64,000 bases of DNA. Origin: Polyangia bacterium. Its GTDB lineage: Bacteria > Myxococcota_A > Polyangia > Palsa-1104 > JAEUJZ01. The notes below the pieces were generated by a model. It searched no databases, was not told the origin of the DNA, and was given only the letters and a program-made list of their open reading frames with translations. Each line of letters opens with the position of its first letter. Within the stretch, counting starts at the first letter, position 1. Of this stretch, positions 32,149-35,904 are shown in pieces. The stretch spans positions 1,304,022-1,368,021 of the forward strand of contig JAXLYE010000002.1 of the NCBI GenBank assembly GCA_046351595.1, written 5' to 3'. Position numbers and translations under genes: made by a program.

Positions 32149-32232
32149 GCAGCGCGGTCGCGGCACCGCCGGCGTCAAAGCGATCCGCGCCCGCCCCGCG
32201 CCGCAGCAAAGAGGAGCGCCCAGCAACGGCAG

Positions 32233-35200
32233 GTGCGCAGGGCCGACGCTGAGCCGAGTAACCTCTTCTTGCGCCGCGGCGAGCTGGAAGACGTGGTAAT
32301 CCTGGACTTCGGCGTGGCGCGCTACCAGGCGCACGGGCCCGCGGTCACCGGCACCGGCGTCGTCGTCGGCACGCCCGAGTACATGGCGCCCGAGCAGGCG
32401 CGCGGCCAGCGCCAGGTCGGGCCGAGCGCCGACGTCTTCTCGCTGGGCTGCGTGCTGTTCGAGTGCCTGGCCGGGCACCCGCCGTTCGCCGCCGAGCACC
32501 TGACGGCGGTGCTGGCCAAGATCCTGTTCGAGGAGGCGCCGCGCCTGCGCTCGGTGCGGCCAGGCACGCCCTCGGCGCTCGACGCGCTCGTCGGCAGCAT
32601 GCTGGCCAAGGACCCGCGCCACCGGCCGGCCGACGCGGCGGTGCTCGTGCGCGAGCTGCGGCGGCTCGAGGGGCTGGACGGCGCGGACGAGCTCCTGCTG
32701 GCGCGCACCGTCGAGATGCCGGGCGCGCTGACCGGGCGCGAGCAGGCGCTGGTCAGCGTCGTGTTCGCGACCCCGCCCGAGAGCCTCGGCGGCGGCGGCT
32801 CGCTGCGCCGCGGCCTGGCGATGGCGGCGCCGCCCTCGCCGCTGCCGCTGCCGGCGGCGCTGGCGCTGGGCGGGCGGATCGAGCAGCTGGCCGACGGCTC
32901 GCTGGTGGCGACGATGACCGCGGCGGGCAGCGCCACGGATCTCGCGGTGCAGGCGGCGCGCTACGCGCTGGCGCTGCACGAGCGCTGGCCGCAGGCCGCG
33001 ATCGCGCTGACCACCGGGCGCGGGCAGCTGCAGGCCGCGGTGCCGGTGGGCGAGGCCATCGATCGCGCGGCGAAGCTCTTGCACGCGGCGCGCGCGCAGG
33101 CCGCGGATCACGCGCGCGCCCGCGACGGCGTCAGCGTGGACGCGCTGACCGCGGGCCTGCTCGATCAGCGCTTCGAGATCGTGCAGCGCGGCGAGCTGCG
33201 CACGCTGCTCGGCGAGAGCGCGCATAAGAGCAGCACGCGGCTCCTGCTGGGCCGGCCGACCCCGTGCGTGGGACGCGAGCAGGAGCTCGGGCTGCTCGAT
33301 TCGGTCCTGCACACCAGCGTCGAAGAGTCGCGCAGCCGCGCGGTGCTCGTGGTCGGCCCGCCGGGCGTGGGCAAGACGCGGCTGTGGCACGAGCTGCTGC
33401 GCCGCTTCCAGGCGCGCCAGGATCTGGCGAACGAGGGTGAGCTCCTGATCGGCCGCGGCGATCCTTTGGCGAGCGAGCGCCCGTACGGCCTGCTCAACCA
33501 GGCGGTGCGTCGCCTGTGCGGCGCCTGGTCGCTGAGCGAGCCGCAGGCCCTGCGCGAAGCGCTCCTTGCGCACATCGGCGACCAGCTCGCGCCCGCGACC
33601 GCGGCGCACGTGGTGACGTTCCTGTGCGAGATGTGCGGCATCTCCGTCGAAGAGGACGTCGACTCCGAGCTGGCCGCGGCGCACAAGGATCCGCAGCGCA
33701 TGGCCGAGCAGATCCGCCTGGCGTTCTCGGACTTCGTGCGCGCCCGCTGCGCCATCCGGCCGGTGCTGTTCGTCGCTGAAGACCTGCACTGGGCCGACCC
33801 GCAGAGCGTGCAGATCCTGGGCGACGTGCTGGTCGAGCTCGCGGATCAGCCGCTGGTGGTCCTGGGCCTCGCGCGGCCGCAGGTGCACGAGCGCTTCGGC
33901 AGCCTGTGGAGCGGCCAGGTGCAGGAGGTGCCGCTGCGCGCGCTCAGCCGCAAGGCGTGCGAGCGCCTGATCCTGCACGTCTTCGAGGCCGGGAACGCTG
34001 ATGTGGATGCCGCGCTGGTGACGCGCCTGACCGAGCAGTCGGCGGGCAACGCGCTGTACCTGGAGGAGCTGATCCGCGCCACCGCGGCCGGGCGCAGCGA
34101 CGTGCCCGAGACCGTGCTGGCGATGCTGCAGGCGCGGATCCAGCCGCTCTTGCCCGAGCTGCGGCGGGTGCTGCGCGCGGCGAGCGTCTTCGGCACGACG
34201 TTCTGGCAGGGAGGCGTGCTCGGCCTGCTCGGTCCGGGCGCCACCTCCGACGAGCTTATGCACCACCTGCAGGCGCTCTTTTCGCTCGAGATCATCGAGC
34301 GCCAGCGCGTGAGCCGCTACCCCGGCGAGGTGCAGTACGGCTTCCGCCAGGGCCTGCTGCGCGACGCCGTCTACGGCCTGCTCACCGAGGAGGATCGCAA
34401 GGTCGGGCACCTCTTGGCCGCGCGCTACCTCGAGCAGAGCGGCGAGACCGAGCCGCTGGTCCTCATCGGCCACTACGAGCTCGCCGGGCAGCCCGAGCTG
34501 GCGGCCGCGCACTACGAGAAGGCCGGCGACACGGCGCGGCGGCTGTGCCTGTTCGCGACGGCGCAGCAGCACTACCAGCGCGCGCTCACCGGGCTGCGCC
34601 GGCGCTCCGCCGAGCCGCGCGAGCGCCCGGAGCGCGACGAAGATCGCCGCCAGCACATCGACCTGATCGTGAAGCTGGTCGAGACCATGACCGTCTCGGA
34701 TCGGCGCGCCGACCTCTTGCCGCTGCTGGCCGAGGCCGAGGCGGTGCTGCAGTCGATTGCGGCGGGCAGCGGTGCGGCGGCAAGCGGCGCCACGACGCTG
34801 TCGCGGGCGGACGAGATCCGCAAGGCCTGGATCGACTACCTGGCCGGCCGCGTCCACTACTTCAGCGGCAACCCGTCCGAGTCACTGCGCTACTACCGCA
34901 AGGTGCTGCCGATCGCGCAGCGCTCGAAGAAGCGCGAGCTTCTGGCCTACCCGGCGGCGCTCGTCGGCACCGCGCTCATGAACCAGGGCTACGCCGACCG
35001 CGCCGAGCACTGGCTGCAGCAGTCGCTCGCGCCGCTCGAGATGATCGGCGATCGCTGGGAGTGGCTGCGCGCCATGGGTTACCTGGGCATCGCGCAGGCG
35101 GTGCAGGGGCGCGGCAAGGAGGGCTGGGCGACGCTCGCCGCGATGCGGCAGCTGGCCGCGGACAACCCCCACCTGACCTCGCTGGCGTCGGCGCTGACGG

Positions 35201-35904
35201 CCGCCTGCTGCCTGTTCACCGGCGAGACCGAGCTGGCGCTCGTGCACGCGCGCAAGGTCGAGGCGCTGTACGACGAGCTGAAGGATCCGGTGCACCTGTT
35301 CTCGGCGTTCTGCACCACCGCCTGGGCGCTGGCGATCGAGAGCCCATGCGGCGAGGCCGACGAGGCGCGCCGCTACCTGGCGCAGGCCGAGGCGCTGGGC
35401 CGCGAGCTGGGCGGCCGCGTGGTGCTGTTCGACTGGTGCCTGGCCGGGCTCGCCGAGGGCGCGGCGGCGCTGGGCGATCGGGCGCTGACCGAGCGCCTGT
35501 CCGAGCAGGTCCTGGTGCTGGCGCTGCGCCTGGACAGCCGGCTGTCGCTGGGCATCGTCGAGCGCGCGCTCGGCCTGGTCAAGGCGCTGCACGGCGGCGC
35601 GGGCGCCGAGGTAGACGAGCACCTCGCGTCGAGCCGCGCCGCGTTCCGCGAGGGGCAGGTGCGCACGCAGGAGGCGATGACCGAGGTCGCCTGGGCGCTC
35701 GTGCACAAGCAGCGCGGCGACCTGCTGGCCGAGACCCGCTTCGGGCACGCCGTGGCGCAGCTCGGGCGGTACGGCTGCGCCCGCGCCGTGAGCCACGCCG
35801 AGCACCTGTGGCGCAGCGGCCGCCCGCGCGCGACTCTGGGGGCCGTCGCGCGCGCGGCGTGCGTGCGTACCGGTGAGGGCCGCAGCGTGCAAGACGCAAG
35901 TTAG
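32233..35904 (+). CDS. N-terminally truncated Ser/Thr kinase (C-lobe only) fused to an AAA_16/STAND NTPase and TPR repeats; possible pseudogene or remnant
   Basis: From a GTG, the translation begins inside the catalytic loop (RRADAEPSNLFL...DFGVAR...GTPEYMAPE). The Gly-rich loop, the VAIK lysine and the HRD motif are all missing. The same reading frame upstream is the czcA gene ending at 32148. Downstream it has GPPGVGKTRLWHELL and long TPR-like repeats. Confidence 0.6.
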   Translation: MRRADAEPSNLFLRRGELEDVVILDFGVARYQAHGPAVTGTGVVVGTPEYMAPEQARGQRQVGPSADVFSLGCVLFECLAGHPPFAAEHLTAVLAKILFEEAPRLRSVRPGTPSALDALVGSMLAKDPRHRPADAAVLVRELRRLEGLDGADELLLARTVEMPGALTGREQALVSVVFATPPESLGGGGSLRRGLAMAAPPSPLPLPAALALGGRIEQLADGSLVATMTAAGSATDLAVQAARYALALHERWPQAAIALTTGRGQLQAAVPVGEAIDRAAKLLHAARAQAADHARARDGVSVDALTAGLLDQRFEIVQRGELRTLLGESAHKSSTRLLLGRPTPCVGREQELGLLDSVLHTSVEESRSRAVLVVGPPGVGKTRLWHELLRRFQARQDLANEGELLIGRGDPLASERPYGLLNQAVRRLCGAWSLSEPQALREALLAHIGDQLAPATAAHVVTFLCEMCGISVEEDVDSELAAAHKDPQRMAEQIRLAFSDFVRARCAIRPVLFVAEDLHWADPQSVQILGDVLVELADQPLVVLGLARPQVHERFGSLWSGQVQEVPLRALSRKACERLILHVFEAGNADVDAALVTRLTEQSAGNALYLEELIRATAAGRSDVPETVLAMLQARIQPLLPELRRVLRAASVFGTTFWQGGVLGLLGPGATSDELMHHLQALFSLEIIERQRVSRYPGEVQYGFRQGLLRDAVYGLLTEEDRKVGHLLAARYLEQSGETEPLVLIGHYELAGQPELAAAHYEKAGDTARRLCLFATAQQHYQRALTGLRRRSAEPRERPERDEDRRQHIDLIVKLVETMTVSDRRADLLPLLAEAEAVLQSIAAGSGAAASGATTLSRADEIRKAWIDYLAGRVHYFSGNPSESLRYYRKVLPIAQRSKKRELLAYPAALVGTALMNQGYADRAEHWLQQSLAPLEMIGDRWEWLRAMGYLGIAQAVQGRGKEGWATLAAMRQLAADNPHLTSLASALTAACCLFTGETELALVHARKVEALYDELKDPVHLFSAFCTTAWALAIESPCGEADEARRYLAQAEALGRELGGRVVLFDWCLAGLAEGAAALGDRALTERLSEQVLVLALRLDSRLSLGIVERALGLVKALHGGAGAEVDEHLASSRAAFREGQVRTQEAMTEVAWALVHKQRGDLLAETRFGHAVAQLGRYGCARAVSHAEHLWRSGRPRATLGAVARAACVRTGEGRSVQDAS

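Follow-up and report, generated by a model that had tools for sequence, protein, structure and literature searches.

How did a Ser/Thr kinase gene of a Polyangia bacterium come to lack the lobe that binds ATP? The gene occupies positions 32233–35904 of the plus strand in a 64,000-nucleotide stretch of contig JAXLYE010000002.1 (assembly GCA_046351595.1), which we refer to as the window. It encodes the C-terminal lobe (C-lobe) of a kinase, an AAA_16 domain of the STAND type and a region resembling tetratricopeptide repeats (TPR), and it follows directly on czcA, the pump gene of a putative metal-efflux operon. The original prediction, made from the sequence alone, held that either the metal-efflux module had displaced the 5′ half of a kinase gene or the frame encodes a reduced pseudokinase scaffold. 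We conclude with good confidence that a kinase-STAND gene was split within its catalytic loop by an inserted block, and that this happened at a site that is broken recurrently and is apparently a target of mobile elements.

We characterized the open reading frame (ORF) and its product. From the GTG at 32233, the ORF encodes 1223 amino acids (P0001), and the product is identical to MFO0574855.1, a protein of a Polyangia metagenome-assembled genome (MAG) that NCBI names "AAA family ATPase." Full-length alignments at 37–50% identity were obtained with hundreds of PknK-like members, and several homologs carry the NCBI name "serine/threonine-protein kinase PknK." The Pfam Pkinase profile matches residues 5–133, but only with profile positions 123–253 of 263 (E = 7e-19), corresponding to a C-lobe fragment that extends from a catalytic-loop remnant to helix alpha-I (32245–32631). 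As the original prediction had read, the translation contains the DFG motif (ILDFGVAR), GTPEYMAPE and the P-loop of an AAA_16 domain; KDPRHRPAD and helices alpha-F to alpha-I are also kept. The AAA_16 match covers residues 345–543 (33265–33861; E = 2e-21, 77.6 bits with a cut-off of 32.6), and both Walker A (GPPGVGKT) and Walker B (LFVAEDLHWAD) are intact. The long TPR region that had also been described may correspond to the C-terminal helical, TPR-like repeats (34573–35901), which align along their whole extent with TPR-bearing homologs; the profiles themselves score below cut-off (TPR_12, 18.7 bits; TPR_10, 17.8 bits), as does a partial match of NCBIfam FxSxx_TPR to residues 878–1092.

Absent from the product is everything that corresponds to profile positions 1–122: the glycine loop (GxGxxG), the VAIK lysine, the alpha-C Glu, the hinge, helices alpha-D and alpha-E, and HRD. 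Translation begins inside a degenerate catalytic loop, RRADAEPSN compared to HRDLEPSN in the closest ortholog, in which His and Arg are gone and Glu stands in place of Lys, but Asn is retained. The glycine loop and catalytic lysine are thus missing, as had been stated, but the HRD Asp, which had been listed with them, has a counterpart in the Asp codon GAC at 32245–32247. Since clear DNA homology to the ortholog begins only at ~32250, this Asp may derive from inserted DNA. As far as can be judged from its translation, the remnant lacks the features that define an active Hanks-type kinase (PF00069) and, because the ATP-binding lobe is absent, would be unable to phosphorylate. The czcA stop codon (32146–32148) lies in the same frame, 84 nt 5′ of the GTG. 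A sequencing frameshift that hides the N-terminal lobe (N-lobe) upstream had been named as the finding that would replace a biological truncation by an error; tblastn and six-frame hmmsearch of the 3 kb upstream detected no N-lobe of a kinase in any frame, which excludes this explanation.

An intact version of the gene exists. The closest relative of the remnant, P0002, is encoded on a JGI metagenome contig (L001), is full length and shares 89% amino acid identity over 1229 residues. At the DNA level, the similarity extends over 3.65 kb at 90% nucleotide identity; thus, the feature is not a product of chance. P0002 starts with TTG at position 8029 of its contig, has the N-lobe LESLPLSVGSRVGGRYEILAVAGQGGMGTV..VAIKVL, and contains the glycine loop, VAIK, the alpha-C Glu, HRD and DFG. 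The genes of this contig are, in order, an outer membrane protein, a paralogous kinase (P0038), a hybrid histidine kinase-response regulator (HK-RR) and the kinase, followed on the opposite strand by malQ and treS-mak. No czc module is present beside malQ and treS-mak, so that an intact kinase without the czc genes, which the original prediction had proposed to look for, does occur at the orthologous site. By blastn, homology between the window and this contig is limited to window positions 32244–43249. It includes the native right flank on the minus strand, consisting of malQ (35977–37869) and a treS-maltokinase fusion gene (37866–41249/41687), which is syntenic with the contig at 92% nucleotide identity; malQ, treS-mak and the DNA to their right are together 92–93% identical. 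The left 8.4 kb of the contig matched nothing anywhere in the window.

The missing half of the gene was found elsewhere in the same genome, as a free N-lobe fragment of the kind for which the original prediction had proposed a genome search. MFO0574825.1 (P0247), a 207-aa "protein kinase" encoded on the same 1,625,101-bp contig as the remnant, consists of an N-lobe that continues to ...HGVVHRDLKPS (residues 1–142, with glycine loop, VAIK, alpha-C, hinge and alpha-D/E), followed by 65 unrelated residues. We read the gene order along the MAG contig from the running NCBI accession numbers, using exact-sequence look-ups. The fragment precedes the remnant by 30 numbers (MFO0574825 versus MFO0574855). 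To its left are the orthologs of the genes that precede the intact kinase: MFO0574823 (P0116), the ortholog of the paralogous kinase P0038 at 85% identity, and MFO0574824 (P0252), the HK-RR ortholog at 97.5% identity. Between the two halves, MFO0574852 is czcC ("TolC family") and MFO0574853 is czcB ("efflux RND transporter periplasmic adaptor"), which belong to the last operon of the block. The remnant is MFO0574855, and MFO0574856 is malQ, the native right flank. The accession order 823-824-825 ... 855-856 is therefore collinear with the intact contig, indicating that the gene was split by insertion of genes 826–854 rather than by deletion or inversion. We estimate that about 29 genes, or roughly 40 kb, were inserted. 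Thus, the 5′ half was displaced by incoming DNA, as the original prediction had suggested, but not by the czc module alone, since czcA is only the last gene of the block; nor was the half lost, as it survives 30 genes upstream.

These observations also bear on the idea that the N-lobe was deleted, displaced by inversion or concealed by a frameshift. The bare fact of truncation would fit any of the three. However, the N-lobe persists beside its original neighbors, an inversion would have reversed the gene order, and no N-lobe remnant occurs in any upstream frame. We regard this explanation as very improbable.

A scenario that accommodates these data starts from a PknK-like gene at this site, composed of a Ser/Thr kinase, a linker, an AAA_16 STAND NTPase and TPR. 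A block of about 29 genes, with czcRS-czcCBA as its end module, would have entered this gene and cut it inside the codons for HRDLKPSN in the catalytic loop. The upstream half would then persist as the 207-aa ORF, 30 genes upstream and beside the original left neighbors, and the downstream half as ORF 32233–35904, possibly encoding a non-catalytic STAND/TPR protein.

A junction of this kind could also be an assembly chimera, in which two loci were misjoined at a conserved kinase motif. The source is metagenome-assembled, copies of the catalytic-loop sequence occur in many kinase genes, and the junction is seen at the level of the assembly rather than of reads, a point that counts against a true insertion. 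However, a misjoin at a repeat would link one kinase to another, not the 3′ spacer of czcA to a C-lobe, and the reciprocal N-lobe fragment is on the same contig in collinear order. Moreover, left junctions of the same class are present in independent assemblies (P0389, P0390 and P0248), and similar junctions lie inside seven other contigs. A chimera therefore seems hardly credible.

We compared the two junctions of the block. The right junction, where foreign DNA meets kinase DNA, lies at 32244–32253 on the plus strand (GAC GCT GAG / CCG); the blastn match to the intact contig starts at 32244 and is clear from ~32250. The window reads ...GGGCC GAC GCT GAG CCG AGT AAC..., compared to CAC CGC GAC CTT GAG CCG AGC AAC in the intact gene. 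At the left junction, the protein sequence of the fragment (HRDLKPS|E) implies ...CAC CGC GAC CTN AAG CCG AGC / GAG.... Codons for K/E-P-S are therefore found on both sides of the block, the left copy being known as protein, with a first base of A on the left and G on the right. This pattern points to ~4–9 bp that were duplicated or that form a shared core. Glu in place of the catalytic-loop Lys is rare (1 of 111 loops sampled); it occurs in the intact gene (8439–8462 of its contig, HRDLEPSN) and also in the split gene P0390 and the right copy in the window. We had considered that Lys changed to Glu before the truncation, and gave up this idea, as Lys is present in the N-lobe fragment from this genome. 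Possible sources of the mismatch are an excision footprint, a junction-derived base or a parallel change.

The right end of the block is a non-coding spacer of 95 nt (32149–32243, plus strand). It contains a Shine-Dalgarno (SD)-like AGAGGAG at 32210–32216, 16 nt 5′ of the GTG at 32233, and we detected no terminator-like hairpin or structured RNA within it. Given the lack of a terminator and the SD-like motif ahead of the start codon, the remnant is probably co-transcribed with czcCBA. Two other origins of junction DNA were rejected. Decayed kinase DNA was dismissed because the similarity of the spacer to kinase DNA was not significant (p = 0.08–0.72), and a group II intron or other known RNA because the junctions had no match in Rfam.

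The original prediction had treated the break as a single event. Instead, it falls at a site of the catalytic loop that is broken in many related genes. At least 14 independent homologs that lack the N-lobe start at the HRDLKPSN site. Among the 120 closest homologs, 7 had no N-lobe. At their loci (L164–L170), kinase homology begins within H-R-D-L-K-P-S-N or at most ~10 codons before it. The genes found 50–250 nt upstream are ordinary and unrelated, and there is no N-lobe nearby. Since the nearest relative of each of these truncated kinases is a full-length kinase (49–89% identity), the truncations are independent events. In a set of 150 representatives obtained by clustering at 50%, about 9 were also N-lobe-less, with starts such as MRDVNPSN, LTDLKPSN or 43 unrelated residues followed by HRDLKPAN, and none of the 150 was truncated elsewhere in the N-lobe. 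On logical grounds, we rejected homologous recombination at the conserved motif shared by paralogous kinases as the source of such truncations, since it would yield chimeric full-length kinases.

A scan at the DNA level gave the same picture. We built a kinase hidden Markov model in which HRD is at position 130 and applied it in six frames to 2.7 Mb of fetched DNA, which contained 123 kinase domains. All N-terminally truncated domains started at model positions 117–135, including those at two loci that had been fetched for other reasons, L162 and L030. A query with the N-lobe returned 120 short fragments, a sample that is biased against fragments ending earlier than the site but not against those ending later. 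Approximately 25–30 of these N-lobe-only fragments run into at least 8 unrelated residues, with ends at positions 131–147; beyond these positions, ends are far sparser per position.

Three of the loci have features of their own. In L162 (positions 900–3261; ENA ERZ650283), it is the paralogous kinase that lacks its N-lobe, with the cut at ...SPSPNPARTL|HRDLKPSN, while this gene is intact both in the L001 contig (P0038) and in the MAG (P0116). In this third lineage, the same 10-kb neighborhood has thus undergone a second recent break, again in the catalytic loop. L030 (1892–7670) encodes an N-lobe-less kinase-AAA_16-GAF-SpoIIE protein of 1641 aa that starts ..GY|IQPQN. A 207-aa ORF consisting only of an N-lobe (ending HRDIKPG|EVW) lies downstream on the same strand, so that the halves are in the reverse of the order expected from simple insertion. 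In L163 (3918–8760; ENA ERZ650309), the N-lobe is cut at VVHR| and is followed by DNA of 39–56% GC that encodes a Sel1-repeat protein and ORFs without assigned function. Four direct repeats of CCGTCGAGAAC lie within 170 nt of this junction, and the junction peptide recurs in an independent Logan assembly (P0248). The repeat was considered as a common motif of element ends and discarded, as it is absent from the other junctions.

To what DNA are the N-lobe fragments joined? Many fragments that end in HRDLKP[ST] carry related non-kinase tails, which we call class 1. Examples are P0403 (STVITKGNRASNDPQRFEMLAN), P0411 (SNVITERNRTSNDPPRFEMLAA), P0417 (TKVNTERNRMSNDPQRFEVLAN), P0389 (SEGATEREAPSIVPN) and the MAG fragment itself (SEACAERAARGRVPRV). 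Between P0403 and P0417 the tails are 68% identical, while the N-lobes are only 51% identical. As frame-shifted variants of the tail exist (for example, P0409), it is the DNA rather than the peptide that is conserved. A second class of tail follows HR| (L163, P0435, P0422 and P0445), and a third follows HRD (P0395, P0399 and P0423). On the right side, the motif CCGGCGTCAAAGCGATCCGC in the window spacer (32169–32188) is common to inserted DNA beside the split kinase of L172, to which the P0403 N-lobe belongs, the two sharing CCG(A)GCGTCAAA(G)CGATCCGC (shuffle p = 0.0025–0.004). The tandem CGATCCGC motif has a further match in L167.

We found both split and intact alleles in near-identical genomes. 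Over 111 of 111 residues, among them the rare HRDLEPS, the N-lobe of P0390 is identical to that of the intact L001 gene; it then runs into a class-1 tail. Such a pair implies that an insertion took place very recently or that an element was excised precisely. The orthologs P0389, P0391 and P0392, whose N-lobes are 93%, 75% and 73% identical, are also split after HRDLKPS and have homologous but diverged tails, which implies that an insertion is old and shared and was later lost from L001, or that the same site was hit repeatedly. From the conservation of junction-proximal DNA across different kinases, and from the presence of split as well as intact alleles in near-identical genomes, we infer that the break site is a preferred target of a mobile-element family. 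Tentatively, we extend this to a model in which the break is the attachment site of a new family, or families, of Myxococcota elements that would use the HRDLKPS codons, carry variable cargo (here the ~40-kb block with czcRS-czcCBA at its end), enter and exit precisely, and leave behind N-lobe-less STAND proteins that are kept as non-catalytic regulators. Kinase genes would then alternate between an intact and a split form, of which the L001 gene and P0390 would be an example.

Several observations weigh against an insertion by such elements. No integrase or transposase was found in positions 1–32243 of the window, which hold 32 kb of the block, and there was no recombinase or transposase beside L163, L172, L030 or any other readable junction. 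The block is host-like in GC content, and its genes resemble housekeeping genes. The size of the block is an estimate from accession numbers. The left junction in this genome is known as protein only, so that its strand and exact position, like the length of the target duplication, are deduced. The left copy encodes Lys, while the right copy and the intact gene encode Glu, which a simple target duplication does not account for. In the sister lineage L163, whose N-lobe matches that of the MAG at 136 of 137 residues, the break lies ~15 nt earlier and leads into different, low-GC DNA. Finally, the similarity of right-end DNA is modest, as 3 of 66 junction pairs reached p ≤ 0.01.

Alignments revealed no significant terminal inverted repeats. 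By eye, the left end in L172 (CACTGTAAT) matches the right end in L169 (TTTACAGTG), and the back-translated left end of the MAG block agrees with the reverse complement of the right end in the window at 13 of 16 positions; both are hints. At L171, a Phage_integrase gene (5256–6341) lies 1.2 kb upstream of the N-lobe fragment P0403, with an alpha/beta-hydrolase gene between; the inserted DNA is on the other side of the fragment. In L172, three genes on the minus strand (1973–6430; 437, 69 and 948 aa) directly adjoin a class-1 junction. We rejected these three as conserved genes of an element, as they have no match in Pfam or NCBIfam and no homolog in the other fetched loci.

We next consider the state of the remnant itself. 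With insertion as its origin, the truncated product could still be a functional, non-catalytic pseudokinase-STAND-TPR protein under selection, which is compatible with the pseudokinase scaffold of the original prediction. The 1223-codon frame is intact, and every indel that separates it from the L001 ortholog is in frame. The ratio of nonsynonymous to synonymous substitution rates (dN/dS) between the two is 0.31 overall, 0.13 in the C-lobe, 0.14 in AAA_16 and 0.35–0.40 in the repeat regions, similar to the neighboring genes malQ (0.41) and treS-mak (0.27). At sites conserved in outgroups, there is no excess in rate, with 12 private changes in the window lineage and 15 in the L001 lineage (p = 0.70). 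The Walker motifs are intact, no terminator follows czcA and an SD-like motif is present.

Truncated homologs point in the same direction. They recur, and all 14 retain the loop Asn, DFG and APE, while 6 of the 14 have lost the Lys of the catalytic loop, compared to 1 of 104 full-length proteins (p = 6e-6). Two truncated proteins, P0011 and P0339, are mutual closest relatives, with 62% identity to each other and at most 51% to any full-length protein sampled. Together, these data favor continued constraint and give a pseudokinase scaffold indirect support, but stop short of demonstrating it. Low dN/dS values would fit a recent split equally well, which counts against reading them as retention. 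In addition, the break also removes helices alpha-D and alpha-E and so does not coincide with a natural boundary between domains; open frames carry little weight at 74% GC; and the Lys codon adjoins the junction, so that some of the losses may belong to the junction event. Overall, we judge the chances that the remnant is retained as a non-catalytic STAND/TPR protein to be about even.

A different reading of the same data is that the remnant is a recently formed, dead pseudogene that has not had time to decay, and that the clustering of breaks reflects a mutational hot spot. Since split and intact alleles occur in near-identical genomes, such events can be very recent. The kinase part cannot bind ATP, the NCBI name is simply "AAA family ATPase," and the start codon and its 16-nt spacing from the SD-like motif are poor. 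However, the splits in P0389, P0391 and P0392 (72–93% N-lobe identity) have diverged homologous tails, which suggests that some splits are old, and the loss of Lys alone, with Asn, DFG and APE retained in the truncated homologs, speaks for continued constraint. A dead pseudogene is thus possible but somewhat doubtful.

How does insertion into a catalytic loop compare to known systems? The remnant resembles PknK-type kinases in its 89% amino acid identity to a full-length member and in having AAA_16 with Walker A and B and a C-terminal repeat region, but lacks a complete N-terminal kinase domain. KIND, the kinase non-catalytic C-lobe domain of eukaryotic Spir, PTPN13 and very-KIND, is also a C-lobe without an ATP-binding lobe, and the truncated homologs described here likewise keep structural motifs and lose catalytic residues. 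KIND is an old, stable domain, while the truncations here fall at the catalytic loop (alpha-D/E being gone), are repeated and are recent; the likeness is one of description.

Genes split by large elements are well known, and include sigK of Bacillus (skin), the genes interrupted by the nifD, fdxN and hupL elements of Anabaena, and comK of Listeria, which contains a phage. As in these interruptions, there are two intact, collinear halves with tens of kb between them, and close relatives have the uninterrupted allele. Unlike them, no recombinase gene was found here, and the target is a motif of a large paralogous family, many genes of which are hit. Other islands and transposons insert site-specifically at conserved sequences, such as the islands in tRNA genes and the Tn7-like elements at glmS or comM. 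The similarities to these are an insertion point confined to ~20 nt, conserved element-proximal sequence and variable cargo that includes metal-resistance genes; the short direct repeats near the ends may also correspond to protein-binding sites. The differences are that the target is the coding sequence of a kinase catalytic loop, the element does not restore the gene, we saw neither tns nor int nor transposase genes, junction positions vary by up to ~5 codons and there are at least three classes of tail.

A gene split by an island is, in itself, ordinary. What is unusual is that the same stretch of ~20 nt is broken in every truncated copy examined, and that no other part is as conserved in this gene family, which has dozens to hundreds of copies in myxobacterial genomes. 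It is also unusual that insertions in unrelated kinases share conserved DNA past the break. If elements home to the catalytic loop, their attachment site would be of a new type, a motif that recurs across a multi-copy family and so offers many landing sites. This would explain recurring proteins annotated as "AAA family ATPase" or "partial kinase" and would provide a route by which metal resistance and other cargo spread while signaling repertoires are remodeled. Natural STAND proteins without an N-lobe are also material for testing roles of the C-lobe other than catalysis. In a limited literature search, we found no paper on elements at the kinase catalytic loop, which is a weak sign of novelty.

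The part of the block within the window (1–32243) comprises its ~21 last genes and at least 32.2 kb, and ~8 genes (MFO0574826–833) lie beyond the left edge. It encodes PilZ-receiver, OmpA-like and DUF11 proteins, ArsA, a flavodoxin, a PAS histidine kinase, a cbb3 oxidase cluster, a P-type ATPase, CBS and USP proteins, an acetyl-CoA hydrolase, an AAA_28 protein, czcRS and czcCBA. At its right end on the plus strand, a czcRS-like pair (24385–26474), consisting of an OmpR-type response regulator (24385–25047) and a HAMP histidine kinase (25044–26474), precedes czcC (26589–27854), czcB (27851–29020) and czcA (~29017/29092–32148), which together span 26589–32148. The profile matches (OEP for CzcC, HlyD_3/HlyD_D23 for the HlyD-type adaptor CzcB and ACR_tran at 763 bits for CzcA) identify a predicted CzcCBA-type RND efflux operon of outer-membrane factor, adaptor and pump, putatively of the heavy-metal type. 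A search for the native context of czcA yielded, as its best relative in metagenome contigs, a gene just 60% identical.

The program-made ORF list shows a single 678-aa ORF at 24438–26474, where there are really two genes, the response regulator and the histidine kinase, that overlap by 4 nt. The cbb3-type oxidase cluster (12428–20719) consists of a fused CcoN-CcoO protein (767 aa, COX1 and FixO), CcoP, a FixG-like ferredoxin, a DsbD_2 protein and a P-type ATPase, and would be an unusual cargo if the block is mobile.

Window GC is about 73–74%, and an antisense ORF of 1400 aa runs across czcA and the remnant (30655–34857, minus strand). We consider it an artefact of high GC, as GC at third codon positions favors the plus-strand genes; open frames alone therefore mean little in this DNA. 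PADLOC returned only generic kinase-domain matches, and membership in a defense system was rejected. The linker between the C-lobe and AAA_16 (residues ~190–340, window positions 32800–33260) matches TIGR03903, "TOMM system kinase/cyclase fusion protein," below cut-off. It is possibly a degenerate cyclase-homology domain, and its dS of 0.08 is the lowest in the gene. To the right of the remnant, a glycogen/trehalose cluster (35977–48265) that includes malQ, the treS-maltokinase fusion gene, a gene for a 1652-aa CBM48 and alpha-amylase protein, and others has the same order as in the L001 contig, at 92–93% nucleotide identity.

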